From an uncultured Candidatus Saccharibacteria bacterium (GTDB taxonomy: Bacteria > Patescibacteriota > Dojkabacteria > GCA-002793355): DNA of 64,000 nucleotides. Below, piece by piece: positions 2,010-64,000 of the stretch. Where the stretch lies: assembly GCA_964525295.1 (NCBI GenBank), contig CAZGEO010000001.1, positions 504,662 through 568,661 of the forward strand, read 5' to 3'. Position 1 is the first letter of the stretch. Each line of letters opens with the position of its first letter. Both the position numbers and the translations under genes were made by a program. The notes under the pieces were generated by a model, which had not been told where the DNA came from, searched no databases, and saw only the letters and a program-made list of their open reading frames with translations.

Positions 2010-2012
2010 GTA

Positions 2013-4913: not shown

Positions 4914-4971
4914 TAATTATTATACCACGAACAAGATATTGACCTTTTTATCGTAGGTATTTGAAATCGAA

Positions 4972-5343
4972 CTAATTTGTAGGTAAGGTCAGCTTGAATA
5001 GCGACCCGACTCCACCGGTAAAATTGACGACACCTGTTGCAAGCCCAATAAGAAGAAAACCCACTAATGCGACAACATATCCAATAATTGCATAAAACAA
5101 AACTTGTGACGACTGCTTCACTGCCTGAGGATTATCCATTGCGAGCAAGCGCATACCGCCTGCATAAGCGATCATTATCACGAGAAGAACTAGAGCAACA
5201 GTAAACAGAAATGTATTAATTAGATTGACGCCAAGTGCCAAGACACTGGCGAGAGTTGGTGGCTCGTAAGTAGGAAAACCATTCTGCCCAGCATTCCCAA
5301 CATCTACACTAAACAAAAAATTTGCTAGTTTTGATAATGGCAT
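4972..5343 (-). CDS. T4SS pilin-like (TrbC/VirB2-family-like) small membrane protein
   Basis: 123 aa with two TM helices, in the same family as the five paralogs in this window. Confidence 0.6.
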   Translation of the reverse strand: MPLSKLANFLFSVDVGNAGQNGFPTYEPPTLASVLALGVNLINTFLFTVALVLLVIMIAYAGGMRLLAMDNPQAVKQSSQVLFYAIIGYVVALVGFLLIGLATGVVNFTGGVGSLFKLTLPTN

Positions 5344-5359
5344 CTGTATGTGTAATCAA

Positions 5360-5719
5360 TTACTGAGCTTCTGTTGGTAATGCAATTGCATCGCTATCAA
5401 CACCAAGTTGTCTCAAAATGAATGAAACTAAGAAGTATGCTGCAAATGCTACCAATAAACCTACAATTGCGTTAGTAATACTTGACATTGCAGTCTTTGC
5501 TTTTTGTGCATCACCTTGGCTGGTTACATATTGCAACCCTGCAAACATAATATAGACAACTGCTGCAATAACAACAACGATCAAAATTGTGTCAAGAATT
5601 TTCTTTACTAAATCGTTTGCATTACCGGTAACGCCAGTATCTGGAGCCCAGCTTGATGCCTGAACTGATGGAATTACGATGTCTTTAATGTACTCTATTG
5701 GGTTGATCATTTGTTGCAT
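5360..5719 (-). CDS. T4SS pilin-like small membrane protein
   Basis: 119 aa. Motif TSQGDAQKAKTAMSSITNAIVGLLVAFAAYFLV matches the GGDP/GDP-K-x-A-x-I-G-L core shared with the 11598-12602 paralogs. Confidence 0.65.
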   Translation of the reverse strand: MQQMINPIEYIKDIVIPSVQASSWAPDTGVTGNANDLVKKILDTILIVVVIAAVVYIMFAGLQYVTSQGDAQKAKTAMSSITNAIVGLLVAFAAYFLVSFILRQLGVDSDAIALPTEAQ

Positions 5720-13139: not shown

Positions 13140-14756
13140 TTATTGTTGGTTGCGCTGCGTAGCAGCGCAACTTTCTATGGAGAGGTGGCCGAGTGGCTGA
13201 AGGCACCTCACTGCTAACGAGGCAAGGATGAAAATCCTTCCCGGGTTCGAATCCCGGCCTCTCCGCCAGTTGTTTGTTATTCGGACTTCCCGAATCTTTA
13301 TTAGTTGAGCAACCACAGGGTTGTATTCAACTCGCACAATTTGTTTATTATCAACGTAAATTCCTTCAAAAAACATTCTCAAATACTTTCTTTTTAGTGT
13401 TGCATCGGCTTTTATATAGCTTGAGAAGATATTTTCAGATAATGACAGTATGCTATCGAGAATCTTTACTTTGTCGGTATGGTCATTCTGAATACTCGCC
13501 AAATCACTCATAGCAACGGATAGCTCATCTTTTAACCTCATATAAATATCCGTAAATTCATCGCTAGATACAATCCTATCCATTCTGTCATCTTCGGCGT
13601 TTTTCATGCGTGTTTTAATCTTCGCAATCCTGTTCTTAATGATTTTTTCTTCTTCTGATTCAGTTTCTCGTACTTCTGCAAGGATTGATTTTGCGGTTTT
13701 AATAACATCTTTCTTAAAGTCTTCCGTAAACTCAATCTTCTTGAATTCTTCGGATACTAACTGCTCTAGTACTTCCATACGGACATAGTTTTTTGAGCAG
13801 TTTTTGCTCTTTTTTCTGCTTTTGCATCCAAAGTAAAAGAATTCCTGTTGTTTTCCGTTTAGGTATTTCTTGATTTTCTGCTCTCCAACAAGTCTTGAAC
13901 CACAGTTACAATAAACATGACCTCTAAGCATGAAATTATGCGTTCTATCACGAGTTCCTTTCACCTTGCGAATATCGAGTAATTGCTGAACAGTATCAAA
14001 TAACTGCTTTGTTATGATTGGTTCATGCTTTCCTTTGTGTAGTTCGCCTTTCCAGTCAAAATCTCCATAATAAATGGGGTTTCTTAACATTCGTGATACT
14101 GCACTTCTTGATATTGGTTTACTCTCTGTTGAAAGCATACCTTTCTTTTGGAGTGTTTCCGTTAAAGAGGTTATAGAATGATCACCACTTGCAAAGAGCT
14201 GAAAGGCGTATAAAACGAGTTTTGCTACATCGGGTACTGGTCTTATATATCTTTTGTGTTTCTCTCCATAATTTTCATATCCGATGGGTGCAAATGTTGG
14301 CCACCAACCATTCTTTATCTTTTGAGAAACACCTTTTTTGACTTCAAAACCGAGATTAGCAGAATAAAACTGTGCTTGAGCCGACATTATTCCCATTAAG
14401 AATTGGTCTGCTGGGTTATCATCGTTGAAATTCTCCGATACTGACATGAGTTTTACTTTTTTGTCATTGAGAATCTTCTTGATAGTCCAAAAATCAGCCA
14501 TATCACGAGATAACCTATCAGACTTATGGATAATAAGTCCATCTACTTCATGTTCTGATATAAAAGAGATCATTTCAAGAAGTGCAGGTCTATCTGCTGT
14601 TCGTGCTGATTTCCCTGCATCTTCAAATTCTTTTACGACTACATATCCGTTAGCTTTCGCAAATTCGTTACATTTTTCACGCTGAAAAGGTAGCGATAAA
14701 TCATGCTTTGCCTGTTCATCTGTGGATACTCTCGTGTATATGACTGCTGTTTTCAT
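13140..14756 (-). CDS. Large serine recombinase (resolvase/invertase N-domain + recombinase domain + zinc-ribbon); the frame continues antisense across the whole tRNA-Ser gene
   Basis: N-terminal YTRVSTDEQ with the catalytic Ser, and DRLSRD. Cys pairs lie in the C-terminal region. The last ~43 codons are the reverse complement of the tRNA. Confidence 0.8.
   Translation of the reverse strand: MKTAVIYTRVSTDEQAKHDLSLPFQREKCNEFAKANGYVVVKEFEDAGKSARTADRPALLEMISFISEHEVDGLIIHKSDRLSRDMADFWTIKKILNDKKVKLMSVSENFNDDNPADQFLMGIMSAQAQFYSANLGFEVKKGVSQKIKNGWWPTFAPIGYENYGEKHKRYIRPVPDVAKLVLYAFQLFASGDHSITSLTETLQKKGMLSTESKPISRSAVSRMLRNPIYYGDFDWKGELHKGKHEPIITKQLFDTVQQLLDIRKVKGTRDRTHNFMLRGHVYCNCGSRLVGEQKIKKYLNGKQQEFFYFGCKSRKKSKNCSKNYVRMEVLEQLVSEEFKKIEFTEDFKKDVIKTAKSILAEVRETESEEEKIIKNRIAKIKTRMKNAEDDRMDRIVSSDEFTDIYMRLKDELSVAMSDLASIQNDHTDKVKILDSILSLSENIFSSYIKADATLKRKYLRMFFEGIYVDNKQIVRVEYNPVVAQLIKIREVRITNNWRRGRDSNPGRIFILASLAVRCLQPLGHLSIESCAATQRNQQ
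13150..13176 (+). terminator. Perfect 9-bp inverted repeat TTGCGCTGC-gta-GCAGCGCAA followed by CTTTCT; possible intrinsic terminator between the DUF4870 gene and tRNA-Ser
   Basis: The palindrome is read directly in the sequence. The U tract is weak, and the hairpin also lies inside the 3' tail of the recombinase reading frame. Confidence 0.35.
13179..13268 (+). tRNA. tRNA-Ser (anticodon GCU) with long variable arm and encoded CCA
   Basis: Acceptor GGAGAGG/CCTCTCC, anticodon loop CUGCUAA (U33, GCU, A37), variable-arm hairpin AAGGATGAAAATCCTT, T-arm CCGGGTTCGAATCCCGG, discriminator G + CCA. Confidence 0.85.
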
Positions 14757-19657: not shown

Positions 19658-19682
19658 ATCTGTGTTGAGTTATACTTATGTT

Positions 19683-21269
19683 ATGTCAGAACAGATAAAA
19701 CGTATTGTTAAATCAGGCAATCCCTTTCTTATTTATCATAATTCTGAAAATGAGACGGCGTTAGTGATTCCTGCAGAATTCATGACTGAAGCAAAATATA
19801 GATTATTTCGAGAATATGCAACCTCTGATGTCGCAATGATGTTTCCTGTAGACATTGCAGAAAGTCTTGGAATCGAGTACATCTCAGACGCACTATTTCT
19901 TAGTGCAGAATACGATTCAATTGTAGATAGTGCAGTAAGAAAATCTCACGCTGGACCAACCCTCGATTTAAAAAGTGTTGAAACAGGAAGTGCTGATGCG
20001 GACAAGGTCAAGACAATAACAAGATTTGCAGAAGTTATATCTTCTCAGAACTTCACAGATTTTTTCAATGAATTCTCAATACCAGGGCATGTTAGAACTT
20101 ATCTTGCCGACCAAGATTTATTAGATGGGCGTAGTGGTCACACTGAGTTAGGTGTATACTTGTCACTTTACACACAGCTTTCAGGTGTCGTATGTATGGT
20201 GACTATTAGAGATAAGGTAACTGGAAAACCATTCAACCTTATTGAGTCGGAGCGTTTTGCAGAAAAAAATAATTACACAATCTTCTATGAGAATGATATT
20301 TTAGACCTATATAGACGGGAGTTTTTACCTTACTGTAAAGCGTCGTTTGAGCAAAAGCAAAACAAGATTATTGAAGATTATAGAAAACTACTAGATATCA
20401 GAAAGTTTGAACAAACCTTAGAAAAGTTGTTTAAAAGTCAAAAAATTCGAGGTTCCTATCATTTAGCCATTGGACAAGAGGCAACAGGAGTGGCTTTAGG
20501 TAAAGTCATTAGCTTGAAAGAAGGAGATAGCGCATTTGTAACACATAGGGGACATCATATTGCTCTCGGTTTAGGGTTAAATAGTCGAGATTTTTTCTTT
20601 GAATGTATTGGAAGTGAACAAGGTCTAAACAACGGGAGATCTGGTCCTATGCACTTTTTTTACAAGCCTAATGGATTAATAAGCGCGAATGGTATTGTAG
20701 CTGCAAATGCACCTATTGCTGCAGGTCTTGCACTGTCAAACAAGCTTAAAAATAATAATAACGTAGTTGTTAATGTTGTAGGAGAAGGCTCCTTAGATGA
20801 AGGAGTCGTGCATGAAACATTGACAGATATGAAAATATGGGGAATTCCATTGATAATACTATGTGAAAATAATTTTTATTCTCAGTCTACGGTAATTGAA
20901 AAACATTTGCCATATGAGAGAGTCACAACAGCGATGCGACAGTTTTACGGCATCAAAGTAGAAAGAATCGAAAATGGTACCGATTTAATTCATTTACAAA
21001 AAAGGCTTAATCATATTGTAGGATGGGTAAGAAAAAATAAAATGCCGGTTTTTGTTGAAATTCAAACATATCGCCAATGTGGACATTCGATGAGTGATAC
21101 TGAGCAAAGTTATATGGATCCGAGTTTAGATTCTGCTTGGCTTAGAAAAGACCCGGTAAGCTTATTGAAACAGTATATTTTAAATCATAATCTTTCAAAT
21201 AACGCTGCTTTAGAAAAGATAGAATCAGAAGTTATAGAATTTTATATGAATCTAGAAACACAAGTATGA
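19683..21269 (+). CDS. Fusion protein: degenerate RibB-like (3,4-dihydroxy-2-butanone-4-phosphate synthase-like) N-domain + TPP-dependent 2-oxoacid dehydrogenase E1 alpha subunit
   Basis: The N-terminal ~200 aa align to RibB (PGHVRTYLADQDLLDGRSGHTE) but the acidic DDEDRENEGD motif is replaced by YHNSENETAL. The C-terminal E1-alpha has YHLAIGQEA, GSEQGLNNGRSGPMH and a TPP motif GEGSLDEG...ENNFY. The likely leaderless start is ATG 19683 (TATACT 6 nt upstream); the track start is 19662. Confidence 0.7.
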   Translation: MSEQIKRIVKSGNPFLIYHNSENETALVIPAEFMTEAKYRLFREYATSDVAMMFPVDIAESLGIEYISDALFLSAEYDSIVDSAVRKSHAGPTLDLKSVETGSADADKVKTITRFAEVISSQNFTDFFNEFSIPGHVRTYLADQDLLDGRSGHTELGVYLSLYTQLSGVVCMVTIRDKVTGKPFNLIESERFAEKNNYTIFYENDILDLYRREFLPYCKASFEQKQNKIIEDYRKLLDIRKFEQTLEKLFKSQKIRGSYHLAIGQEATGVALGKVISLKEGDSAFVTHRGHHIALGLGLNSRDFFFECIGSEQGLNNGRSGPMHFFYKPNGLISANGIVAANAPIAAGLALSNKLKNNNNVVVNVVGEGSLDEGVVHETLTDMKIWGIPLIILCENNFYSQSTVIEKHLPYERVTTAMRQFYGIKVERIENGTDLIHLQKRLNHIVGWVRKNKMPVFVEIQTYRQCGHSMSDTEQSYMDPSLDSAWLRKDPVSLLKQYILNHNLSNNAALEKIESEVIEFYMNLETQV

Positions 21270-22195
21270 AATATTTAGATGCTATCACGAGCTGTTTAAA
21301 GTTTGAACTATCAAAAGAGAATTTATATATTCTTGGACAGGATTTACTCAATTGGAAGGGGCGGGGTCGCTTCTTACATTCATTAATAACTGATTATAGT
21401 GACAAGATAATTGATACTCCAATTTCTGAATCCGCAACTTCAGGAATCGCAACCGGTTTAGCACTGGGAGGATTCAGAGTTATGGTGGAATATGCATTTT
21501 TAGATTTTATATTACATAGTACGGATCAAATAGTTAACAATTCGACTAAGCTTCAATTCTTTGCGGGTTCAAAACACGCCATAAATCTACCAATCGTCTA
21601 TTACTCAACGATTAATTCTGCTATGGGATATGGAGCAACTCATTCACAACCATTGGAGTATCTTTTCTGTAATATTCCTAATTTATTAACAGTTTATCCT
21701 TCCAATAGTACGGATGCTCAGTCTCTATTAAAGGAGGCTCTGAATGCCTCTTCGCCTACCCTTTTTATAAATCATAAACTACTCCACGATACTGAGGACG
21801 ATTTACCCGTAATAGATGCCGGTAAGGCACGAGTTTTTTCTCAAACTAATGATAAGTCGGAAAAGATTGTAATTGTAACTTATGGAAGATCTACTCAATT
21901 GGTTCGAGAAATTTTGACTCAACTTCCAGAACCAGTATATCATGTGGATTTAAGATATCTATCGAAATTTGATTATCAATCAATCCTTCATCCTGCAAGA
22001 AAAATAGTATTTGTAGAGGAAGGTTCTGGTGTGATTATGAAACAGCTTATTGCTGATTTAGTAACCTATTACAACTTAACCTCGAAAGATATCAGATTGA
22101 TAAGCTCAAAAGCTATGCAAATTGGTGCCGGAAGAGCACATGAAGAAATGGTCTTTGTTTCAAAGTCTGATATTTTAGATGCAATACAGTCCTAA
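21266..22195 (+). CDS. TPP-dependent dehydrogenase E1 beta subunit / transketolase-like pyrimidine-binding + C-terminal domains (divergent)
   Basis: 4-nt overlap with E1-alpha and an E1-beta-like layout (TPISESATSGIATGLALGGFRVMVEY). No E2/E3 is nearby. Confidence 0.65.
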   Translation: MKYLDAITSCLKFELSKENLYILGQDLLNWKGRGRFLHSLITDYSDKIIDTPISESATSGIATGLALGGFRVMVEYAFLDFILHSTDQIVNNSTKLQFFAGSKHAINLPIVYYSTINSAMGYGATHSQPLEYLFCNIPNLLTVYPSNSTDAQSLLKEALNASSPTLFINHKLLHDTEDDLPVIDAGKARVFSQTNDKSEKIVIVTYGRSTQLVREILTQLPEPVYHVDLRYLSKFDYQSILHPARKIVFVEEGSGVIMKQLIADLVTYYNLTSKDIRLISSKAMQIGAGRAHEEMVFVSKSDILDAIQS

Positions 22196-39261: not shown

Positions 39262-40101
39262 GTGAGAAGACAAGAAGTGCCTACTCCTGAACGGAAATTG
39301 TGTACAGAAAATTGGTGGGTTCGTAGTGTAGATAAATTGTGGCGTTTTCTGGGCTTCTATCGCTGTGCTGGATGCGATAAGTTTTCGTACACTCTTTGTA
39401 ACACATGTTGTGACAGATTGACCTTTGCTGTGCCTACTTGTTGTCGTTGCGGAAAATTTTCAAGGAATGGTACGATTCACCAAATCTGTGTACCTAATTC
39501 GCAATTCTATCAAAAAACAATATCATTTTTCTCATACACAAAAGTTGTAAAAAGTCTTTTTGCTGCCTATAAGTTTCGGCGACAATTTCAATATCAGCAG
39601 GTATTAGCCGAGTTAATCAAACAATACTTTTTGCTTGACCCTTTTCATTTATTGTCGTGTAACTTTAATTCTGGCGACAAAATTGCACTTATACCTGTGC
39701 CAATGCACAAAAGAAAGCAGAGTGACCGTGGATTTTCACCAGCATATGAACTCACTCTCCTACTCTACCGTGAATTCTTTCAGAATTTTAGCAACGAAAT
39801 TGAAATTTTTGGGCATACTATAACCAAAGTAACTGACAGTTCTGCTCAGTCTTCGCAGAAGCACCGTAATAGGATGCTTTCACTTCAGCGGTCTATACAA
39901 ATTTTGCCAGAAAATGTGTCGGAAGCTTCGCGACTTCTAAAATTCGCACCAACAAAACTTGTTATTGTCGATGACATTTTAACTACTGGCGCGACCGCAA
40001 CGGTTGTTATTGAATCTTTAGCAAAAAATTTACCAGAACTATGCAAAAACACAGAACGAATAGTAATAACGTTTGCTAGAAGCGATAAAAAGCTTTACTA
40101 G
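39262..40101 (+). CDS. ComF-family protein (N-terminal zinc-finger + phosphoribosyltransferase domain)
   Basis: CAGCDKFSY..CNTCC..CCRCGKF and PRPP-binding VIVDDILTTGATAT. Confidence 0.75.
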   Translation: MRRQEVPTPERKLCTENWWVRSVDKLWRFLGFYRCAGCDKFSYTLCNTCCDRLTFAVPTCCRCGKFSRNGTIHQICVPNSQFYQKTISFFSYTKVVKSLFAAYKFRRQFQYQQVLAELIKQYFLLDPFHLLSCNFNSGDKIALIPVPMHKRKQSDRGFSPAYELTLLLYREFFQNFSNEIEIFGHTITKVTDSSAQSSQKHRNRMLSLQRSIQILPENVSEASRLLKFAPTKLVIVDDILTTGATATVVIESLAKNLPELCKNTERIVITFARSDKKLY

Positions 40102-43100
40102 ACAACAATTTTCAGTTGTAGCGGTGTTTTTTCTGCGCCTACTTCAACAGTCGTAAAACCTGCGCCTTCAGGAGAAGTTGCTAGGATACTAACTTCACTT
40201 AAGAATGTCGTTGTTGCCAACTTTTCCTGATACTTGTTAATCATTTCATTGAGTTTTTTCTCTTCGCTGTAAACTTCAAGTTTTGCTCTTTGTCCAATTG
40301 CAAGGTTAGCATTCTTTCTAGCTGCCTGAACAGCACGAGAAATCTCGCGCAGTAGCCCCATCTCTGCAAGTTCTGGCGTAATCTCAGTTTCGAGCCCAAT
40401 AGTAACATCCTTTTCTGATTTGGTAACAATAGTAGTTGATTCTGGCATTACTTCAACCATTTCTACTGATTGCACATTGAGTTCTTCAGCGATTAAATCG
40501 AGATATTCCTGCTCAAGTTTCTTGTCAGCCTGATACATTACTTTTTGGAGAGGTTGCTTCAATGCTAATGCTTTTTCAACACGAATGTTCTGCCCGAGTG
40601 AGGCAACTTCACGAGTAAATTCCATTGTGGTTAACGCCTTTTCTTCTGCGGTTGTCAAAGCATTCACTTCTGGATACAACTCAAGATGCACAGATTCAAG
40701 CGTTAAGACAGTTGGTGCACCTTTTCTCAATTCTTGATAAATGTAATCGGCTATAAATGGCACTATGGGAGCAAAGATTTTTGCCACTGAAACAAGAACC
40801 GAAAAGAGCGTTTGTAACGCAGCTTTATCACCTGCAACGAATCTTTCTCGTGAACGACGAATGTACCACGTAGAAATGTCATCTATAAGAGGTTTTATCT
40901 CAGAAACAGCCTTTGGTACATGATAGGAACTTAGATGTTTATCAATATCAATGGCGGTCTTTTTAATTCGTGCAAGTACCCATTCATCGAGAACAGTTGG
41001 GGTAACTTTCGTTTCTGTAGCGTCAAAATTGTGTTGATTAGCGTATAGAGCGAAATATTTGTACACATTCATAAGTGGGAGTAAAACGTCTTTTATCGGC
41101 TGCGCAATTGCTTCTTCTGAAACGTTCAGATCTTCGCCAACCGGAAGAACGCTACCTGCGACATAAACTCTAAATGCATCTCCCCCATATTTTTCAATTA
41201 CTCCCTTTGGATCAGGATAATTCTTGAGACTCTTGCTCATCTTTCTGCCGTCAGTACCTTTGATAGTTCCTGTTACGATGACATTCTTAAACGCATTCGA
41301 TTTGAAAAGAATTGTTGAAACAACGTGCATGACATTGAACCACGCTCTTGTTTGTCCAACATATTCGATAACGAAATCTCCTGGGAAATTGTTTTCAAAT
41401 TTCTCTTTATTTTCGAAAGGATAGTGATATTGAGCAAAAGGCATTGATGCCGATTCAAACCAACAGTCTAAAACTTCTGGGACTCGTGTCATCGTACCTT
41501 TCTGGCATTCTTCACATTTCCACGTATGCGTATCAATGTATGGACGATGCAGGTTGTCTATTTTCTTTCCTGATTTTGCTTCAATTTCTGCAATTGAGCC
41601 CATGACTTCACGATGGTGACAGGTTGGTTCGGAACATTCCCAAATAGGCATAGGTGTCGCCCAGTAGCGGGTTCGTGAAAGTCCCCAATCAGGGAAGGTT
41701 TTGATCGCTTCGCTGAATCTACCGTATTTTAGATGTTCTGGAACCCAGTTGATGTTTTCGTTGTTTGCAAAAAGTTGCTCCTTTATCTGTTGAATATCGA
41801 CATACCAAGCGCCTTGAGCCTTGTAAACAAGTGGCGTTTTACAGCGATAACAGATTGGATAACTGTGAGTGATTCTCTCCTCTTTGTATAAAATACCTCG
41901 TTCCTTTAGATTCTCGGTTATTGCTGGATCAGCCTTTTTGAAATAAATGCCCGCATAATCGGCTACTTCTGAAATAAACTTTCCTTCATCATCAATGGTT
42001 TCGTGCATCGAAAGGCCAATTTCTTTTCCTAGTGCGGTATCATCTTCACCGAATCCTGGTGCCATGTGAATGATTCCCGTACCATCTTCAATACTGACGA
42101 AATCTGCGTGATAGATTTTGAAATCCTTGTCACCTGCTGGGAAGTAGTTGAACAGCGGTTTGTAGGTATTGCCAACTAATTCTTTACCTTTATAGGTATC
42201 AACTACCGTAAAGGGAGTTTCCTTTAACACTTTTTCTACTAAATTTGCAGCGAGAATGACATATTCCTCACCAATTTTGGCGGTAACGTAGTCTTGTTCT
42301 TTATCTACAACAAGTGCTGTATTGGCCGGCAGCGTCCATGGAGTCGTTGTCCAGGCCATTACAGAAACCTTAGGTTTGCTAATGTTAGGCTCTACTGTTT
42401 GCTCATTGATAATTGAAGATTGATAATTAACAATTGAGGGTTTGTTCTCTAGGATGTCTTTCAAGCAGTTCCTTGTTGGAATATGCATGTCGTTCCATGG
42501 AATATCGTTTTTGTCGAACCATTCAATGTTTTTATCAAGTCCCGCTTCGTCGGTAACTTTAATGTCACCTGTAACTTTCGCCTTAAAATGGTGAGTCTTG
42601 AACAATCTACCTTCGAAAATATCGATTGCGTAACCATAATATTCAAGAGCAGCAATATCGCAACCTATCTCCTCTTTAATCTCTCGGGCAACCGTGTTTT
42701 TTAAGTCGCCATTATCTTGCTCTTCATATTTTCCCCCGACGATTCCGTATACTCTATCTCGACCAGGTTCGTTTCTGCGAATCATCATTACTTGGCCCTT
42801 TTCATTTTCAATAACAACACCTGCGCCAACTCCGGTTTTGTAGTAATTCAATTCGAATTTAACAAAGACGGCTGGATCTTCCAGATCTGCATACGAGTTA
42901 TCCATTGCAATCTCGAAGTTAGAAAGTGGAGTTCCACATCGAGTGCAGTACAAAGAAACTCGTTTTCCTTGATAGACAAGCCCTTTTTCGAAGAATTGTT
43001 TGAAAACCCACATAACGGTTTCCATGTAATTCAAATCCATTGTTCGGTAGGGCTTTTTCATGTCAACCCAACGTGCAATTCTGTCGATATACCATTCCCA

Positions 43101-43505
43101 TTCACCAGAAACGTCGGTTACGTAGGAATAGCAAGAATCGATAAATTGTTGGATACCAATCTTAGTTTCGATCTCACGACGATTTTTAGTTTCGAATTTG
43201 CGTTCAACAATTTCTTCAATTGGCAAACCGTGACAGTCCCATCCCCAAACGCGTTTTACTCTCTTTCCTTTCATTGTTTGATAGCGAGGAACGATGTCTT
43301 TTATGATACTTCCGAGTAAGTGTCCGTAGTGAGGAAGTCCTGTAACGAATGGAGGCCCATCATAGAAAATGAAATGATCTTTTTCAGAACGGCTGGTAAT
43401 AGATTTCTCAAAAATGGAGTTTGATTTCCAATAATCAAGTATCGGTTGTTCCACCTCGTTGTAAAACGAGCGTACATTGGGAACTGAAAAAGAAGATTTA
43501 GTCAT
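40098..43505 (-). CDS. ileS: Isoleucyl-tRNA synthetase (type 2, eukaryote-like C-terminus) carrying a ~150-aa NUDIX-hydrolase insertion (about 42381-42833) between the catalytic-core Zn-knuckle region and the CP1 editing domain
   Basis: HIGH = PHYGHLLGS, KMSKS = KMSKSLKNYP, CP1 WTTTPWTLPAN. The insert holds a Nudix box GIVGGKYEEQDNGDLKNTVAREIKEEIGC. The gene is leaderless (TATAAT 5 nt before the ATG). Confidence 0.9.
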   Translation of the reverse strand: MTKSSFSVPNVRSFYNEVEQPILDYWKSNSIFEKSITSRSEKDHFIFYDGPPFVTGLPHYGHLLGSIIKDIVPRYQTMKGKRVKRVWGWDCHGLPIEEIVERKFETKNRREIETKIGIQQFIDSCYSYVTDVSGEWEWYIDRIARWVDMKKPYRTMDLNYMETVMWVFKQFFEKGLVYQGKRVSLYCTRCGTPLSNFEIAMDNSYADLEDPAVFVKFELNYYKTGVGAGVVIENEKGQVMMIRRNEPGRDRVYGIVGGKYEEQDNGDLKNTVAREIKEEIGCDIAALEYYGYAIDIFEGRLFKTHHFKAKVTGDIKVTDEAGLDKNIEWFDKNDIPWNDMHIPTRNCLKDILENKPSIVNYQSSIINEQTVEPNISKPKVSVMAWTTTPWTLPANTALVVDKEQDYVTAKIGEEYVILAANLVEKVLKETPFTVVDTYKGKELVGNTYKPLFNYFPAGDKDFKIYHADFVSIEDGTGIIHMAPGFGEDDTALGKEIGLSMHETIDDEGKFISEVADYAGIYFKKADPAITENLKERGILYKEERITHSYPICYRCKTPLVYKAQGAWYVDIQQIKEQLFANNENINWVPEHLKYGRFSEAIKTFPDWGLSRTRYWATPMPIWECSEPTCHHREVMGSIAEIEAKSGKKIDNLHRPYIDTHTWKCEECQKGTMTRVPEVLDCWFESASMPFAQYHYPFENKEKFENNFPGDFVIEYVGQTRAWFNVMHVVSTILFKSNAFKNVIVTGTIKGTDGRKMSKSLKNYPDPKGVIEKYGGDAFRVYVAGSVLPVGEDLNVSEEAIAQPIKDVLLPLMNVYKYFALYANQHNFDATETKVTPTVLDEWVLARIKKTAIDIDKHLSSYHVPKAVSEIKPLIDDISTWYIRRSRERFVAGDKAALQTLFSVLVSVAKIFAPIVPFIADYIYQELRKGAPTVLTLESVHLELYPEVNALTTAEEKALTTMEFTREVASLGQNIRVEKALALKQPLQKVMYQADKKLEQEYLDLIAEELNVQSVEMVEVMPESTTIVTKSEKDVTIGLETEITPELAEMGLLREISRAVQAARKNANLAIGQRAKLEVYSEEKKLNEMINKYQEKLATTTFLSEVSILATSPEGAGFTTVEVGAEKTPLQLKIVV

Positions 43506-57726: not shown

Positions 57727-57846
57727 GATAAAGCATGAGGGAGGTAAAGAATTAAAGCAGTAAAACGGTAAAACACGGAAGCACTAGAGCATTAAAGCAT
57801 TAGAGTACTAAAGCGCTAAAGCAAGAAAGTAGGAAAGTTATAAAGC
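57727..57846. repeat. Octanucleotide tandem array (about 15 x NNTAAAGC-like units); its 3' end is the left boundary of the 5079-bp tandem duplication
   Basis: ...ggtaaaga attaaagc agtaaaac ggtaaaac acggaagc actagagc attaaagc attagagt actaaagc gctaaagc aagaaagt aggaaagt tataaagc. Confidence 0.7.
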
Positions 57847-57847
57847 G

Positions 57848-57876
57848 CAAAAAAATTAATGCTTTATCGCATTAAT
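57848..57876 (-). terminator. Intrinsic terminator of the nth-like gene: ATTAATGC-loop-GCATTAAT hairpin overlapping the stop codon, followed by U7 on the minus strand
   Basis: Plus strand gcgcAAAAAAATTAATGCtttatcGCATTAAT. An identical copy lies at 62927..62955. Confidence 0.5.
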
Positions 57877-58516
57877 CTGCTACCTTGTACTTGTTGAGAA
57901 TATTGTTTGGGTCTTTCATCTGAATGTGATTCGACAAGTGTTGTCCAACAAGCACGAGAATGCGGTTCGTTTTGATCCATAATTCTTTTGGAAGTTTCTT
58001 GCGTAAGGCAAATTCTGTTTGTTCAGGAGTTTTGGTTGTAACGTACCCAATATGATTCATGATGCGATGCACGTGAGTGTCAACACAAATTGCAGGAATG
58101 TCAAAAACTACCGATTGCACAAGATTTGCAGTTTTACGACCAACACCAGGGAGTTCGAGTAGCTGTTCCATTTCGCTAGGTACATTTCCTTGATATTTTT
58201 CGATGAGTATCGAAGAAAGTTCTTTGAGGTGCTTTGCTTTTGTCGTGTAAAAGTTGATAGGTCGGAGCAATTGTGCAAGCCTATCGATTGGTATTGCCAT
58301 CATTTTTTCGGGGGTACTTGCTTCTTGCCACAATCCAGGCATACGTGTATTCGTTAAGCTGTCTTTGGTTCTTGCAGAAAGTACTATCGAAACCAAGGTA
58401 AAAAAAGGTGATTTGTAGGTTTCATGAACTGCTTCTGCGAATGAAAGCGGCGCTTCAATCGATTGCAATTCTTTTTCAAGAGCTTCGTAAAATTCGGCTA
58501 TAGAAACAGTATTCAT
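57872..58516 (-). CDS. nth: Endonuclease III-like HhH-GPD DNA glycosylase/lyase lacking the C-terminal [4Fe-4S] Cys cluster (copy 1)
   Basis: HhH-GPD LLELPGVGRKTANLV with the catalytic Lys, VDTHVHRI with Asp, and no C-x6-C-x2-C-x5-C at the C-terminus. Confidence 0.75.
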   Translation of the reverse strand: MNTVSIAEFYEALEKELQSIEAPLSFAEAVHETYKSPFFTLVSIVLSARTKDSLTNTRMPGLWQEASTPEKMMAIPIDRLAQLLRPINFYTTKAKHLKELSSILIEKYQGNVPSEMEQLLELPGVGRKTANLVQSVVFDIPAICVDTHVHRIMNHIGYVTTKTPEQTEFALRKKLPKELWIKTNRILVLVGQHLSNHIQMKDPNNILNKYKVAD

Positions 58517-58548
58517 AAAATTCTTATTAACTTAATGTTACGTATCAC

Positions 58549-60204
58549 TTAGTAAATTGCGCACTTCACGTCAATGAAGTCGAAGTCGTTGATGCTGCTT
58601 AGTTTGTCGTTTGCTTGGCTTGCTACAGTAACGGTTGCCTGCGCTGCCTGGTATTCTGTGCAAGTTTTTTGTTCGGCGACCTCTGGTGGGTAGTAAACCA
58701 CAACAGGAATTAGGTTTTCTGCTAAACAGGCGTCTTTTCTGAAGAAGAGTATGCCATACCACATACAGCGATTGTATGACTCTTTTTTCTCATCAATTTC
58801 TGCTTGGGTTGGAAGGTTGAGGCTGGCAATTCCAGCTTTTCCGGTGACAGCACCTTGACCAACTACAATATAATCTGAATAATCGATTATTGAAGATATT
58901 GTTGAACCGACAAAAGCTCCTGTAAGAGGCATTATAACAAGTCCCGATTCTCCTTTCTCAGGTGATAGGATTTCCAATGCATTTGGTTCTGGAGCTGGAT
59001 TCGGTGTGGCTGTATTCGTTGGTGCATAAGTCGGGGTACTTGTTGCGGTTTGAGAGGGAGTATTAGTGGCAGTAGGTGTCGTTGTCTGTATTACTGTCAT
59101 TGAAGTACATTGACCATTAGATTCAATGTAGCCACTCGAACAGGTAGCATGTTCTGTGTCTGTAGCATCATAACAGGGGATCGAATTAGGTGTTCCTTTT
59201 TTAACAGTTCCGCTTTTTGGACATTGAGGTTCGCGTCTACATAAAACTCCAGATGCAGTAAATGGAGGCTTACACTCAAAGCGAGACGCATTTTGTTTAT
59301 CGTAACATTGTGTCGCATTTTTGACGTTGTTACCCACGGTTGGATAAGAACATTGTGGCGTTTTGAGGGTACTTGCAACACAAACCCCGTCTTTCAACAT
59401 ATATCCTGAATTGCATTCATTAAGCTCTTTATTGGTTTTATCGTAACAAGTATGTGAATAGAGTATAACTTTTGAGGTTGTTGCTCCAGAACATTGTGGC
59501 GTTTTGAGTATGATGGTTGGCGTCGGTGTGTGCCCTGTGCATTCACCTTCTTCGTGAGTGGATGTTGTTGTTGTGTATGCACAGCACTTCAAGGCATTGT
59601 TCCATTCTTCACCTGATCTACAGGTTGTTGGTGTTGTAGCAATGGTCGTTATTGCGGGGCATCGTGTTGTAGTTTTTGACAAAGCGGTTGCACCATTTGC
59701 TTTCTTTGCGCATCTATACATAAAGCCATCTCTACCACATCTATCGGGTGTGCCGAGATCACATTCATCCCCATCGTTTGCACTGCCAGTCGGCGCTACA
59801 GGTGTTGTTGTCGTTGGTACTGACGCTACTGAGACTCCACAGTCTTCTTCCATTTTGCCTGGACGATAACGATAATCTTTACCTTTAGGACTATCAGCAG
59901 GGCATCGTTCACCTAATTTTGTTTCGGGGCCGTAATATTCAACTGCTTTGGCTGGCGAAGTACATGAGCAGTTGCCCTGTTTGTTACAAACGGCAACTTT
60001 CTTGCTTCCGCAATCGAGGTCTGAAGGTTTTTTTGCTTTTTCAGCATTTTTGCTTTTTGCAAACGAACCAAACACAAATTCTTGCGTTTCAGTTCCTGAG
60101 ACAATAAACGTGGTTACCACAAGGAGCGAGAGCGCCGCGAATGCGATAATTACGTTCTTTACCGAGAAAACCTTAGCAATTGATGATTTTTTAACTTTTA
60201 CCAT
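58549..60204 (-). CDS. Secreted/membrane-anchored cysteine-rich modular protein: N-terminal signal-anchor, Cys-rich region, 3-4 tandem ~45-aa six-Cys modules (TPQCS..C.D...EC.SGY...G.C), Thr/Pro-rich linker, C-terminal domain
   Basis: Repeats KTPQCSGATT...CYDKTNKELNECNSGYMLKDGVCVA / KTPQCSYPT...CYDKQNASRFECKPPF..GVLC / PQCPKSGT...CYDATDTEHATCSSGYIESNGQCTS, then TTTPTATNTPSQTATSTPTYAPTNTATPNPAPEP. Confidence 0.7.
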   Translation of the reverse strand: MVKVKKSSIAKVFSVKNVIIAFAALSLLVVTTFIVSGTETQEFVFGSFAKSKNAEKAKKPSDLDCGSKKVAVCNKQGNCSCTSPAKAVEYYGPETKLGERCPADSPKGKDYRYRPGKMEEDCGVSVASVPTTTTPVAPTGSANDGDECDLGTPDRCGRDGFMYRCAKKANGATALSKTTTRCPAITTIATTPTTCRSGEEWNNALKCCAYTTTTSTHEEGECTGHTPTPTIILKTPQCSGATTSKVILYSHTCYDKTNKELNECNSGYMLKDGVCVASTLKTPQCSYPTVGNNVKNATQCYDKQNASRFECKPPFTASGVLCRREPQCPKSGTVKKGTPNSIPCYDATDTEHATCSSGYIESNGQCTSMTVIQTTTPTATNTPSQTATSTPTYAPTNTATPNPAPEPNALEILSPEKGESGLVIMPLTGAFVGSTISSIIDYSDYIVVGQGAVTGKAGIASLNLPTQAEIDEKKESYNRCMWYGILFFRKDACLAENLIPVVVYYPPEVAEQKTCTEYQAAQATVTVASQANDKLSSINDFDFIDVKCAIY

Positions 60205-60239
60205 AATTTCATAGTACCGAATCTATAAAACTTGTCAAG

Positions 60240-60947
60240 TCAATAGTCTTCGGCTTCTGCCACATCTTCAACGTATTCGAAAGGCATTTCTAAATATTCG
60301 TTTACAGTTTTTAGCGAAAAAGTGTCAAAGAGGTCTGTTCTTTGAGCAATTTCTTCTGCTGTATTCCAAATATTCTCTTGATGAGCGGTTTGTTGAATGA
60401 ATTCACCACCAATATCAGTAACTAAGTGACGGTAAAAAATTACATCTTGGACTGTTGATTCACCGTGCTTACGAATTTTATGATAAATATTGATCAGCTT
60501 AATATTTTTGGCAGTTAGGCCTGTTTCTTCAAAAAGCTCTCTGAGTACAGCATCTTTTAAAGTTTCGCCAAAGCGTACTTTGCCACCGAGAAAGCCAACT
60601 TTTCCATAATATGGTTGTCGAAGACGCTTTGAGAGTAAAAATTCATCGTGATTCGTGCCTGTACGTTTGCGTGTAACAATGAAGATAACGGAAGTCTTCG
60701 GCTGTTTTTCGATCTCTGTGATTGTGTCATCCATCAAATTTGCGTAATCTTTTCCGGTATCAGTTAATTCATAATGTCCATTTCTTCGGCGAACGAACTC
60801 AAGTTCCATCAATTTCTGTAGATGGTAATTCATGTGTTCGCTTTCAATTCCTTCGATTATTAGGTCGTTGAATCGAAGTGGATCTTTATGCAGAGTCAGC
60901 TTTCGCAAGAGCTCTTTTTGTAAATTGTGTAATTTTGTTTCTGTCAT
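60240..60947 (-). CDS. NUDIX hydrolase with N-terminal winged-helix domain (reverse domain order relative to NrtR)
   Basis: Nudix box GGKVRFGETLKDAVLRELFEETGL. N-terminal wHTH-like LQKELLRKLTL...FNDLI...YHLQKLMELEFV. Confidence 0.65.
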   Translation of the reverse strand: MTETKLHNLQKELLRKLTLHKDPLRFNDLIIEGIESEHMNYHLQKLMELEFVRRRNGHYELTDTGKDYANLMDDTITEIEKQPKTSVIFIVTRKRTGTNHDEFLLSKRLRQPYYGKVGFLGGKVRFGETLKDAVLRELFEETGLTAKNIKLINIYHKIRKHGESTVQDVIFYRHLVTDIGGEFIQQTAHQENIWNTAEEIAQRTDLFDTFSLKTVNEYLEMPFEYVEDVAEAEDY

Positions 60948-61083
60948 GATTGATTATTATGCGATTTTAGCATTGATTCAACTGAAAAATATTTTAGTAA
61001 GAGAAATAATCTGCGATATCGATTCTCCAAGTAATTGAGCATTAATGATTGATAATTAATAATTAAACAGGTTATAATCCTCA

Positions 61084-62883
61084 ATGCAGCGAACAATTTC
61101 ATCTCAACTCCTTCCTCTTGCAGGTCAAAAAGCACGCGTTGAAGGGTGGTTACATAACTTCAGGGAACTCGGAAAAATCGGTTTTTTGATACTTCGAGAT
61201 CGTGGTGGGTTGGTACAGGTAGTTGTTGATAACGCTGATTCGTTAAAGAAAATTAAGGATTTGCAACCAGGTTCAGTAATTCGAGCAATTGGTGAAGTAA
61301 AAGAAACAAAGGCAACAGACAATAAAGTGGAACTCGTGAATCCAGAAATTGAGGTGTTGGTTCCTATTCATGAAATTCCACCGGTCGCATATAACAAGAA
61401 GGGGCTTGATGTAAATATTGATACTGAGCTTGATTATCGTCCTTTGGTTATTCGCAACTTGAAGAAACAAGCGATATTTCGAGCGCAGGCAGTTATATTG
61501 CAAAAGTTCGCAGAATCACTACGGAATCAAGGGTTTACCGAATTTCGTTCCCCGGTTTTGATGAATGCGCCGTCTGAAAGTGGAGCAAGCGTTTTTGAAG
61601 TTAATTATTTTGAAGGAAAGGCATATCTTGCACAATCACCGCAAATATATAAGCAGATTATGGTTACTGCGTTTGAGCGCGCATTTTGCGTTGGTACGGT
61701 ATTTAGAGCAGAGAAACACAATACAACAAGGCACTTGATGGAGATTACTCAGATGGACGCAGAAATGGGCTTCATTGAGAATTATGATGAAGCAATGGAA
61801 GTAGCAGAAACCGTCATTCGTGACATTATGACTGCTGTTTCGTCACAATTCGAGAAAGAATTGGCAGAATATGGCGTAGATTTGCCCAAATTGCCGACAG
61901 AAAGATTTCCAAAAGTGAAAGTTAAAGAAGCATTGAAGATTATTGAAGAGCGCATCGGAAAAAGCGCAGCACGTGAAGAATTGGATCTTGATCCAGAAGA
62001 TGAGCGAGAATTAAGTAAATGGGCCCTAGAAAAGTTTAATTCAGACTTTTTGTGGGTACTGAACTTTAAAGGAAACAAGAACTTTTACACTTGGGATAAT
62101 CCAGAAGATGCAGAAGAATCATTGAGTTTTGACCTCGAGTTTCGAGGACTTGAAATGTTGTCTGGAACTCATCGTATTCATGATTATGAAAAACTACATG
62201 AAAGATTCTTGAAACAGGGGTTAACTGAAGCTTACTACGAACATTATTTTCAGGCCTTCAAATACGGTATGCCATCTGAAGCTGGATTTTCTTTCGGTCT
62301 AGAACGTTTGACCATGAAATTGTTCAACTTGCCGAATGTTCGAGAGGCTACATTGTTCCCTTCAGATTTGAAGCGAATAGCTGCAATGAACAGAATAAAG
62401 GAAGTTATCAAAGGTGAAAAAGAAGTTGTCGCTAAAATTAAGCAAATTCTCGATACTCGCGCGATGGAGTACACTTTCGAAGAACATGAAGCTGTACAAA
62501 CTAGTGAAGAAGCTGCAGCTTTGCGTGGCGTTCCTCTCTCTTCTGGAGCTAAAGCGCTCATTCTCAAGGGAAAAAAGAGCAGTAAGCATGTTATGGTTGT
62601 TGTTCCTGGAGATAAAAAACTCGATATGCGGGCAGTATCTGAAAAGGTCGGTGAAAAAGTTGAATTTGAAAAACCTGAAGCTATTCTCGATACTTACGGT
62701 ATTATGGTCGGTGGCGTGCCTCCATTCGGTAACGTTCTCGGAATGCGAGTGTTGCTAGATGAAAATGTTGCCAATAATCCAAAAGTTTCGTTTAATGCAG
62801 GAATGCGAACGTGCTCGATTTCGATGAATGGTGCAGATCTTGCCGAGGCAAATGAGGGAGAAATTGGGAAATTTAGTGCCTAG
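61084..62883 (+). CDS. Archaeal/eukaryotic-type aspartyl/asparaginyl-tRNA synthetase fused to a C-terminal YbaK/ProX-like aminoacyl-tRNA deacylase domain (about 62416-62883)
   Basis: N-terminal OB fold, class II motifs (QSPQIYKQ, FRAEKHNTTRHLMEITQMD, GLERL). C-terminal KALILKGKK..KHVMVVVPGDKKLDMRAVSEKVGEKVEF..PE....GIMVGGVPPFG....VLLDE....VSFNAG matches YbaK. Leaderless (TTATAAT 6 nt upstream). Confidence 0.8.
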   Translation: MQRTISSQLLPLAGQKARVEGWLHNFRELGKIGFLILRDRGGLVQVVVDNADSLKKIKDLQPGSVIRAIGEVKETKATDNKVELVNPEIEVLVPIHEIPPVAYNKKGLDVNIDTELDYRPLVIRNLKKQAIFRAQAVILQKFAESLRNQGFTEFRSPVLMNAPSESGASVFEVNYFEGKAYLAQSPQIYKQIMVTAFERAFCVGTVFRAEKHNTTRHLMEITQMDAEMGFIENYDEAMEVAETVIRDIMTAVSSQFEKELAEYGVDLPKLPTERFPKVKVKEALKIIEERIGKSAAREELDLDPEDERELSKWALEKFNSDFLWVLNFKGNKNFYTWDNPEDAEESLSFDLEFRGLEMLSGTHRIHDYEKLHERFLKQGLTEAYYEHYFQAFKYGMPSEAGFSFGLERLTMKLFNLPNVREATLFPSDLKRIAAMNRIKEVIKGEKEVVAKIKQILDTRAMEYTFEEHEAVQTSEEAAALRGVPLSSGAKALILKGKKSSKHVMVVVPGDKKLDMRAVSEKVGEKVEFEKPEAILDTYGIMVGGVPPFGNVLGMRVLLDENVANNPKVSFNAGMRTCSISMNGADLAEANEGEIGKFSA

Positions 62884-62885
62884 TA

Positions 62886-62925
62886 AGTAAAGCGCTAAAG
62901 CAAGAAAGTAGGAAAGTTATAAAGC
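62886..62925. repeat. Octanucleotide array (5 units), second copy at the duplication junction
   Basis: agtaaagc gctaaagc aagaaagt aggaaagt tataaagc, identical to 57807-57846 except for the first unit. Confidence 0.7.
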
Positions 62926-62950
62926 GCAAAAAAATTAATGCTTTATCGCA

Positions 62951-63595
62951 TTAATCTGCTACCTTGTACTTGTTGAGAATATTGTTTGGGTCTTTCATCT
63001 GAATGTGATTCGACAAGTGTTGTCCAACAAGCACGAGAATGCGGTTCGTTTTGATCCATAATTCTTTTGGAAGTTTCTTGCGTAAGGCAAATTCTGTTTG
63101 TTCAGGAGTTTTGGTTGTAACGTACCCAATATGATTCATGATGCGATGCACGTGAGTGTCAACACAAATTGCAGGAATGTCAAAAACTACCGATTGCACA
63201 AGATTTGCAGTTTTACGACCAACACCAGGGAGTTCGAGTAGCTGTTCCATTTCGCTAGGTACATTTCCTTGATATTTTTCGATGAGTATCGAAGAAAGTT
63301 CTTTGAGGTGCTTTGCTTTTGTCGTGTAAAAGTTGATAGGTCGGAGCAATTGTGCAAGCCTATCGATTGGTATTGCCATCATTTTTTCGGGGGTACTTGC
63401 TTCTTGCCACAATCCAGGCATACGTGTATTCGTTAAGCTGTCTTTGGTTCTTGCAGAAAGTACTATCGAAACCAAGGTAAAAAAAGGTGATTTGTAGGTT
63501 TCATGAACTGCTTCTGCGAATGAAAGCGGCGCTTCAATCGATTGCAATTCTTTTTCAAGAGCTTCGTAAAATTCGGCTATAGAAACAGTATTCAT
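62951..63595 (-). CDS. nth: Endonuclease III-like HhH-GPD glycosylase (copy 2, identical to 57872..58516)
   Basis: The 214-aa translation is identical. Confidence 0.75.
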   Translation of the reverse strand: MNTVSIAEFYEALEKELQSIEAPLSFAEAVHETYKSPFFTLVSIVLSARTKDSLTNTRMPGLWQEASTPEKMMAIPIDRLAQLLRPINFYTTKAKHLKELSSILIEKYQGNVPSEMEQLLELPGVGRKTANLVQSVVFDIPAICVDTHVHRIMNHIGYVTTKTPEQTEFALRKKLPKELWIKTNRILVLVGQHLSNHIQMKDPNNILNKYKVAD

Positions 63596-63627
63596 AAAAT
63601 TCTTATTAACTTAATGTTACGTATCAC

Positions 63628-64000
63628 TTAGTAAATTGCGCACTTCACGTCAATGAAGTCGAAGTCGTTGATGCTGCTTAGTTTGTCGTTTGCTTGGCTT
63701 GCTACAGTAACGGTTGCCTGCGCTGCCTGGTATTCTGTGCAAGTTTTTTGTTCGGCGACCTCTGGTGGGTAGTAAACCACAACAGGAATTAGGTTTTCTG
63801 CTAAACAGGCGTCTTTTCTGAAGAAGAGTATGCCATACCACATACAGCGATTGTATGACTCTTTTTTCTCATCAATTTCTGCTTGGGTTGGAAGGTTGAG
63901 GCTGGCAATTCCAGCTTTTCCGGTGACAGCACCTTGACCAACTACAATATAATCTGAATAATCGATTATTGAAGATATTGTTGAACCGACAAAAGCTCCT
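63628..64000 (-). CDS. 3' portion of a second copy of the cysteine-rich modular protein gene (truncated by window end)
   Basis: The C-terminal 71 aa are identical to the copy-1 C-terminus, and the frame stays open to the window edge. Confidence 0.6.
   Translation of the reverse strand, partial: GAFVGSTISSIIDYSDYIVVGQGAVTGKAGIASLNLPTQAEIDEKKESYNRCMWYGILFFRKDACLAENLIPVVVYYPPEVAEQKTCTEYQAAQATVTVASQANDKLSSINDFDFIDVKCAIY

Follow-up and report, generated by a model that had tools for sequence, protein, structure and literature searches.

The 64,000-nucleotide (nt) stretch analysed here, called the window below, comes from an uncultured Candidatus Saccharibacteria bacterium assigned to the Dojkabacteria in GTDB (assembly GCA_964525295.1, contig CAZGEO010000001.1, positions 504,662 to 568,661). 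Near its end lies a gene, aspS::edit (61084-62883, + strand), whose product joins an aspartyl-tRNA synthetase (AspRS) to a predicted aminoacyl-tRNA deacylase domain. The open reading frame (ORF) comprises 599 uninterrupted codons with no internal stop and ends with a TAG codon. On the same strand, the encoded protein begins with an OB-fold anticodon-binding domain (amino acids 18-92, 61135-61359; Pfam PF01336 tRNA_anti-codon, E 3e-17), followed by the class IIb AspRS catalytic core (amino acids 112-427, 61417-62364; PF00152 tRNA-synt_2, E 4e-74). A short linker, AAMNRIKEVIKG (amino acids 433-444, 62380-62415), leads from the core to the deacylase domain (amino acids 445-599, 62416-62880), which was assigned by Pfam PF04073, AlphaFold2 and Foldseek to the INS superfamily (YbaK/ProX fold, YeaK-like). 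The PF04073 (tRNA_edit) match at amino acids 468-588 covers 122 of 123 profile positions with E 4e-27 and 95.1 bits (cutoff 25.5), and the profile assignment expected in a first-pass annotation of this DNA was thus obtained. The linker is the least conserved part of the protein, with a mean top-residue frequency of 0.53 compared with 0.71 in the core, and it was modelled with a predicted local distance difference test (pLDDT) score of 76-86. For the full-length protein, the AlphaFold2 model reached a mean pLDDT of 88.9 and a predicted template modelling score of 0.79 and was confident over the junction between synthetase and deacylase.

A protein identical to the aspS::edit product was present in public collections (P0001), encoded both on a 659,080-bp NCBI contig and in an independent Logan assembly, and hundreds of homologous fusions with 43-95% identity were found in unrelated samples. 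Because the identical ORF occurs in an independent assembly and homologous fusions number in the hundreds, aspS::edit is a genuine fusion and is not explained by errors in reading or in assembly. The gene ends 4 nt short of an exact repeat junction, which is what one would cite in favour of a misassembly, a gene-joining frameshift or an effect of the 5-kb repeat. Against such an artefact stand the independent assembly, the homologues and the confidently modelled junction, and we regard its probability as negligible and the explanation as ruled out. The first-pass annotation had likewise taken the gene to be unsplit.

The synthetase part was scored against the NCBIfam models. It matched NF003483, ‘aspartate--tRNA(Asn) ligase’, with 455.2 bits (cutoff 353) and a second AspRS model, TIGR00458, with 356.8 bits, slightly under the cutoff of 368.4. 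The core contains the Asp-type motif QSPQIYK at amino acids 184-190 together with class II motif 2 (FRAEKHNTTRH, 207-217) and motif 3 (GFSFGLER, 401-408), and the columns that are invariant in the alignment of fusion proteins include R208, E210, H217 and R408. From the NCBIfam scores and the QSPQ-x-x-K motif, the synthetase part is identified by sequence as an archaeal-type class IIb AspRS and not an asparaginyl-tRNA synthetase (AsnRS). The archaeal-type class IIb assignment made earlier thus stands, while the option of an AsnRS was rejected, since the AsnRS models gave only 227 and 210 bits (cutoffs 414 and 343) and the QSPQ-x-x-K motif is present. Pfam found no GAD domain in the 599-residue protein.

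The nearest solved structure of the synthetase part is 1n9w, Thermus thermophilus AspRS2 (E 2e-87), a non-discriminating archaeal-type AspRS in a bacterium. In alignments with 1n9w, 3nel and 1b8a, His24 (61153-61155) corresponds to a His of T. thermophilus AspRS2 and to Trp26 of the discriminating Thermococcus kodakarensis enzyme, and the position equivalent to Lys85 is Asp79, neither Lys nor Pro. In work by Feng et al. and Charron et al. in 2003, non-discriminating AspRS enzymes, with their relaxed anticodon recognition, reportedly have His or Gln in place of Trp26 and Pro in place of Lys85. The T. thermophilus enzyme thus shares the His with the synthetase part described here but differs in lacking an appended domain and in having GatCAB as its partner in a transamidosome.

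In the C-terminal domain, all motifs quoted in the first-pass annotation were located, namely GAKALILKG, which includes Lys490, GGVPPFG (543-549) and FNAG (570-573). Lys490 (62551-62553, + strand) corresponds to the conserved catalytic lysine of the INS superfamily, and G543-G-V-P-P547 (62710-62724, + strand) to its GXXXP loop. In an alignment of 44 fusion proteins with 43-78% identity, H468, K490, G543, P547, G549 and F570 were invariant, and G544 and P546 were conserved in at least 90% of the sequences; K490, G543 and P547 were also kept in free-standing homologues. Over these 44 fusions, conservation of the deacylase domain is roughly equal to that of the OB domain. The invariance of these residues at such divergence indicates that purifying selection acts on the deacylase domain. 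Every INS member characterized to date holds its substrate with the catalytic Lys and the GXXXP loop (PMC11286415), and because K490 and G543-x-x-x-P547 match these two elements the domain looks catalytically competent, as far as can be judged from its sequence.

The AlphaFold2 model of amino acids 436-599 (pLDDT 91.8) was compared with the PDB using Foldseek. All 37 matches with E ≤ 1e-3 were proteins of the YbaK/INS fold, among them 1wdv, 2cx5 (ProXp-x), 1vki, 1dbu (YbaK), 3op6, 2dxa, 8huz, INS domains of prolyl-tRNA synthetases (ProRS), designs built on 2cx5 and the larger proteins 9qzk and 3mem. By fold, the closest was Aeropyrum pernix APE2540 (1wdv; TM 0.83/0.91), a free-standing, uncharacterized structural-genomics protein. 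By domain profile, the scores decreased in the following order: Legionella pneumophila lpg1207 (3op6; 79.2 bits), Escherichia coli YeaK, also known as ProXp-ST1 (79.0 bits), APE2540 (55 bits), ProXp-x (2cx5; 52 bits), E. coli YbaK (2dxa; 51 bits) and the ProXp-ala representatives 5vxb, 1vjf and 8huz (29.9, 30.4 and 24 bits, respectively). The closest solved structure by profile, lpg1207, is likewise free-standing and uncharacterized, and our literature search found no paper mentioning 3op6. Using hhalign, the domain aligned with YeaK over the full length with 99% probability and 25% identity, and both share the motifs HE, RGT, GAKAL (with the catalytic Lys), the PPF loop and FNAG. YeaK, with which the domain has fold and motif set in common, is therefore its best-scoring characterized relative; it differs in consisting of one domain and in acting in trans on many tRNAs, whereas the domain studied here is covalently attached to AspRS and has relatives encoded near aspS, asnS or tRNA-Asn. 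Since identity is only about 25%, the substrate specificity of YeaK cannot be transferred to it.

Both YbaK equivalog models scored far under their cutoffs (TIGR00011, 66.6 bits with a cutoff of 153; NF007951, 28.7 with a cutoff of 243), and membership of the YbaK group was rejected on these grounds; ProXp-ala membership was rejected because of scores of about 30 bits compared with 79 for YeaK and 3op6. The domain is thus classified, on sequence criteria, as a YeaK-like member of the INS superfamily and not as YbaK or ProXp-ala. The earlier assignment to the YbaK/ProX deacylase family is therefore correct at the level of PF04073 and the INS fold, and has to be amended with respect to the nearest relatives, which are YeaK and lpg1207.

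The occurrence of the fusion was surveyed by scanning one genome per GTDB species for its pattern; the scan returned 186 relatives, and the best 80 were analysed. Of these, 76 were fusions with AspRS encoded by ORFs of about 600 amino acids. They were found in Dojkabacteria and other Patescibacteria, in about 32 metagenome-assembled genomes (MAGs) labelled Chlamydiota (Parachlamydiales, Rhabdochlamydiaceae) and in a few MAGs labelled Bdellovibrionota, Verrucomicrobiota or Pseudomonadota. The closest named homologues of the fusion protein described here belong to Candidatus Dojkabacteria (WS6, Patescibacteria/Candidate Phyla Radiation, CPR). A search seeded with a chlamydial member added 120 further clusters with at least 76% identity, all containing the three domains, and the only public names in these clusters were ‘aspartate--tRNA(Asn) ligase’ and ‘nondiscriminating aspartyl-tRNA synthetase’. 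The survey of the fusion suggested in the first-pass annotation thus showed its recurrence in Dojkabacteria, other Patescibacteria and a large clade of environmental Chlamydiota. The fusion is widespread in uncultured Patescibacteria and Chlamydiota and not rare. In one MAG labelled Pseudomonadota, which is chlamydia-like by sequence (L018), an archaeal-type aspS::edit gene (1693-3501) is followed by a bacterial-type AspRS gene (3899-5680) that is complete and has a GAD domain (765 bits), so that two AspRS genes stand one behind the other.

When 1.84 billion cluster representatives were searched exhaustively with a profile, 7050 matches were obtained, 119 of them below 1e-30. The best matches were mostly free-standing proteins of 150-170 amino acids. 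Among the best 150 representatives, 20 longer proteins were scanned with Pfam, and 16 of them were AspRS fusions or fragments thereof; the rest were tandem edit arrays, two fusions with a D-Ala-D-Ala carboxypeptidase and one GmrSD_N fusion. No synthetase partner other than AspRS was found among the longer proteins scanned. The AspRS partners are of three architectures: archaeal-type, bacterial-type without GAD (P0121, P0145, L012 and L077, the latter two matching NF001750 with 560 bits) and bacterial-type with GAD (P0147 with 748 amino acids, P0160 with 744 amino acids, and fragments). The fusions to these three architectures are independent. Three of the representatives (P0127, P0154, P0169) consist solely of two or three tandem deacylase domains. 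In P0220 and P0238, a YeaK-like deacylase domain is located N-terminal to a D-Ala-D-Ala carboxypeptidase (Peptidase_S11), an architecture that hints at a D-amino-acid link for part of the deacylase family.

Gene neighbourhoods were examined in a metagenome scan with a profile built from 11 free-standing sequences. Among the 69 loci obtained, 26 were in-frame fusions with AspRS within one ORF (22 archaeal-type, 4 bacterial-type) and 43 were free-standing. An AspRS or AsnRS gene was directly adjacent to the free-standing edit gene at 6 of the 18 loci that were well flanked (at least 2.5 kb on each side), namely L092, L098, L120, L139, L141 and L152. By our rough, uncomputed estimate, adjacency within about eight genes would arise by chance in some 2% of cases, assuming two such genes in a genome with approximately 700-1000 genes. 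The AsnRS and AspRS calls at the metagenome loci exceeded the NCBIfam cutoffs. Several gene orders were observed. The edit gene is placed between tRNA-Asn and asnS (L092) or between a bacterial aspS and asnS (L139), it precedes asnS (L120, and L090 with a gap of 1 nt) or aspS (L141), or it follows aspS (L152, L114); in two loci (L098, and L078 from the genome scan) it is divergent from asnS, aspS and tRNA-Asn, which lie together on one strand. In the genome scan, one edit gene was convergent with a bacterial aspS without GAD (L040) and another had aspS within 2 kb (L031). For one of the free-standing cluster representatives (P0125), the next gene begins 1 nt downstream, and its sequence clearly identifies it as asnS.

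Similar neighbourhoods were seen for the fused form. In a fusion-bearing member of the Dojkabacteria (L007), asnS adjoins the fusion gene (501 bits, cutoff 414), and in another fusion-bearing relative (L086) the order is aspS::edit, tRNA-Asn, asnS. The tRNAAsn of the latter has U1-A72 and G73; bacterial GatCAB separates tRNAAsn from tRNAAsp by the U1-A72 pair (PMC4206432, PMC9976931). The first-pass annotation had considered a link to the non-discriminating Asp-tRNAAsn route. This link is not a simple one, as several related Dojkabacteria have a true AsnRS beside the fusion gene and gatCAB was not found near any locus examined. Neither asnS nor a second aspS was found in the 64-kb window. In Chlamydiota, the fusion gene was located directly downstream of rpsO-pnp (S15, polynucleotide phosphorylase) in 25 of the 80 genome loci and likewise in L085, where the gap is 9 nt; this arrangement is conserved.

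Fusions to three AspRS architectures, varied aspS and asnS operon orders and adjacency to tRNA-Asn are three kinds of evidence that converge, and for these reasons we regard the domain family as functionally linked to Asp/Asn-tRNA synthesis. The earlier suggestion that a deacylase was recruited to AspRS and probably edits mischarged tRNAAsp or tRNAAsn is supported by the fusions and by the gene adjacencies. Taken together, the sequence data favour a model in which a functional archaeal-type AspRS and a competent deacylase similar to YeaK/ProXp-ST1 form one protein, with the deacylase serving as an editing module for Asp/Asn charging; we assign this model a probability of about 0.62. The likeliest target would be Asp-tRNAAsn, since this is the sole mischarged species connecting AspRS, AsnRS and tRNAAsn. 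We infer a deacylase activity that would be coupled to AspRS in vivo and that might distinguish between tRNAs. After esterification of the tRNA by AspRS, the 3′ end of a wrong product would reach the deacylase pocket, either within the same dimer or after release, and Lys490 and the GXXXP loop would then place the ester for hydrolysis. Asp-tRNAAsn might be formed if the anticodon-binding domain of AspRS fails to keep tRNAAsn out, or if AsnRS uses Asp by mistake. In tRNAAsn, the U1-A72 pair could be the mark by which Asp-tRNAAsn is separated from Asp-tRNAAsp. The removal of an excess transamidation intermediate appears to have a precedent in Helicobacter pylori GluRS2, which reportedly hydrolyses Glu-tRNAGln (PMC3241645). 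The likeness lies in a synthetase of an indirect pathway that clears its own mischarged intermediate; GluRS2 differs in having no separate editing domain and in belonging to another synthetase class and tRNA system.

Several observations weigh against an editing role in Asp/Asn charging or limit it. Chlamydiaceae depend on Asp-tRNAAsn and GatCAB. Hydrolysis of Asp-tRNAAsn would be wasteful in these bacteria unless it is kinetically gated or limited to an excess. The linker has only about 12 residues, which bears on whether the CCA end could reach the pocket in cis. AspRS orthologues with approximately 60% identity exist that have no deacylase domain, and no PF04073 gene was found within 6 kb of them. 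In a neighbour-joining tree of AspRS cores, fused and unfused forms were interleaved, requiring at least seven changes when two truncated fusions are allowed for; the deacylase domain is dispensable. No Asp/Asn-related neighbour was present at 12 of the 18 well-flanked free-standing loci. Furthermore, gatCAB was not found near any of about 150 loci examined (including 80 genome loci with 3-kb flanks and three 22-kb loci), nor were gatCAB (by ORF translations), dtd or tRNAAsp found in the 64-kb window. YeaK, finally, removes Ser and Thr and not Asp (PMC11295145).

Part of this evidence would be accommodated if the domain were a general trans-editing factor, either one for Ser/Thr similar to ProXp-ST1 or a guard of ProRS of the YbaK/ProXp-ala type, that is tethered to AspRS for co-expression or tRNA affinity. 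The closest characterized family, YeaK/ProXp-ST1 (79 bits, hhalign 99%), has a broad tRNA specificity (PMC11295145), the diversity of the domain family is mostly free-standing, the domain was repeatedly gained or lost relative to AspRS, and most well-flanked free-standing loci show no Asp/Asn-related neighbour. A general factor, however, would not be expected to have AspRS, in three independent architectures, as the sole synthetase partner found, or to be encoded next to aspS, asnS or tRNA-Asn in several orders, and we consider it unlikely. The ProRS variant is further opposed by the poor scores against the YbaK and ProXp-ala families and by the bacterial ProRS of the L086 genome, which already has its own INS domain. 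Since the ProRS of this related fusion-bearing genome has its INS domain, a role in correcting ProRS errors is not supported, and the idea that the domain substitutes for a missing ProRS INS domain is weakened; no ProRS link of the AspRS-fused domain family was seen. We also considered a non-catalytic module that binds tRNA or serves as a scaffold, for instance by retaining tRNAAsn or by docking GatCAB in a complex resembling a transamidosome. Appended domains that raise affinity do exist, such as the C-terminal domain of plant ProXp-ala (PMC11295145), and the archaeal-type AspRS2 of Thermus is part of a transamidosome (PMC4206432). Even between deeply diverged members, though, neither the catalytic Lys nor the GXXXP loop varies, and gatCAB was not found in the vicinity of the loci examined, so that a scaffold appears highly improbable.

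A serious alternative, because AspRS charges D-Asp (PMC1807948), is a target defined by the amino acid on tRNAAsp. Here the domain would remove a wrong, non-cognate or D-amino acid from tRNAAsp, for instance D-Asp or a near-cognate such as Ser, Thr or Asn, which amounts to a sub-variant of the proposed editing module with a different substrate; in the case of D-Asp, the role would be chiral proofreading in genomes that are small and may lack DTD. E. coli AspRS charges D-Asp on tRNAAsp, and with D-Asp a dtd deletion led to more than ninefold slower growth (PMC1807948). The occurrence of the domain family on a D-Ala-D-Ala carboxypeptidase fits such a role, the characterized INS members are all described by the amino acid that they remove, and a target of this kind would account for fusion to discriminating-type and non-discriminating-type AspRS alike. 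It leaves the adjacency to asnS and tRNA-Asn unexplained, however, and we know of no D-specific member of the INS family, which counts against D-Asp. We judge this alternative somewhat improbable. Returning to Asp-tRNAAsn as the target of the editing module, a more far-reaching proposal is that the domain polices the identity of the tRNA and not that of the amino acid, hydrolysing Asp-tRNAAsn, which it would recognize by U1-A72, while sparing Asp-tRNAAsp; AspRS would then be the eighth synthetase family with hydrolytic proofreading, and one that follows a new logic. We put this forward tentatively, as a possibility with clearly less than even odds. If it is true, a structurally non-discriminating AspRS would be made functionally discriminating in those Patescibacteria that have AsnRS, and in Chlamydiota the domain would drain excess transamidation intermediate.

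To our knowledge, AspRS has been regarded as a synthetase that does not need editing. In a review published in 2024, seven synthetase families with editing domains were listed, and AspRS was not included (PMC11295145). According to the same review, INS members beyond the INS domain of ProRS are single-domain proteins, with the protist ProXp-ala::ProRS and the plant C-terminal domain as special cases, and the INS clusters ProXp-7, -8 and -9 have no known function (PMC11295145). The only previously described synthetase fusion of a free-standing-type INS domain is ProXp-ala-ProRS (PMC11295145, PMC11286415). This protein of protists (Plasmodium, Trypanosoma and others) is likewise an INS deacylase fused to a class II synthetase without an internal editing domain. 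It differs from the fusion described here in its partner (ProRS instead of AspRS), in the position of the deacylase (N-terminal instead of C-terminal), in belonging to the ProXp-ala subfamily, for which the domain described here scored only 30 bits, and in being eukaryotic. YbaK, a Cys-tRNAPro deacylase, shares Pfam PF04073 and the fold with the domain, which is not a YbaK equivalog. A full-text search, which left much of the subscription literature out of reach, revealed no description of an AspRS-YbaK/INS fusion or of synthetase editing domains in CPR bacteria. Both the deacylase fold and the synthetase are thus known, but their combination in one protein is undescribed, evidently under selection and marked by a distinctive genomic signature.

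The repeated fusion of a deacylase family to AspRS, together with its linkage in operons to AsnRS and tRNA-Asn, points to an unrecognized fidelity problem in the decoding of Asp and Asn. The domain is a candidate for the means by which cells with a relaxed AspRS keep Asp out of Asn codons. It might also provide a functional lead for the many ‘YbaK/EbsC family’ proteins whose role is unknown, and numerous public proteins named ‘aspartate--tRNA(Asn) ligase’ would need a new annotation. The fusion is carried by bacteria that depend on hosts (CPR, Chlamydiota) and in which little is known of translation quality control.

The aspS::edit gene is located between the starts of two copies of a direct repeat. 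Positions 57809-58921 and 62888-64000 are exactly identical over 1113 nt with a period of 5079 nt; the first copy marks the start of a 5079-bp unit that contains aspS::edit, and the second starts 4 nt past the aspS::edit stop codon and reaches the window end. One copy of the gene is visible within the window. An independent Logan contig of 5086 bp (SRR11582163, locus L001) is identical to window positions 57809-62894 and spans one full unit and the first 7 nt (TAAAGCG) of the next. The break of this Logan graph node at the unit ends implies that reads join the unit end to the unit start. This suggests that the repeat is a real tandem duplication with a 7-nt microhomology or else reflects a circular copy. 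The placement of the gene inside a tandemly duplicated 5-kb unit, as proposed before, is thus borne out only for these 1113 nt, at which point the window ends. Besides aspS::edit, the unit encodes an endonuclease III-like protein, a Thr/Cys-rich secreted protein of 551 amino acids and the divergent upstream neighbour of aspS::edit (60240-60947, - strand), a protein with a winged-helix (DUF7347) and a NUDIX domain according to Pfam, for which the same gene call was obtained in L001.

The genome contains a second unusual synthetase architecture. In an isoleucyl-tRNA synthetase of 1135 amino acids (40098-43505, - strand), a NUDIX domain (amino acids 224-336, Pfam E 5e-13) lies inside the class I core, in the region usually occupied by the CP1 editing domain. 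The GC content of the window is approximately 0.33-0.43. A large serine recombinase (13140-14756, - strand; Resolvase, Recombinase and Zn-ribbon domains) overlaps tRNA-Ser(GCT) (13179-13268, + strand), and beyond it, at about 14-22 kb, the GC content is 0.33-0.35 and the ORF translations were not recognized. Together, the recombinase and the low-GC stretch probably represent a mobile element that has integrated here. In another locus (L020), a similar recombinase directly adjoins tRNA-Asn. A protein of 535 amino acids encoded at 19662-21269 (+ strand) is an unusual fusion of DHBP-synthase (RibB) and dehydrogenase E1-component domains, and the ORF next to it (21266-22195) resembles an E1 beta or transketolase-type subunit.

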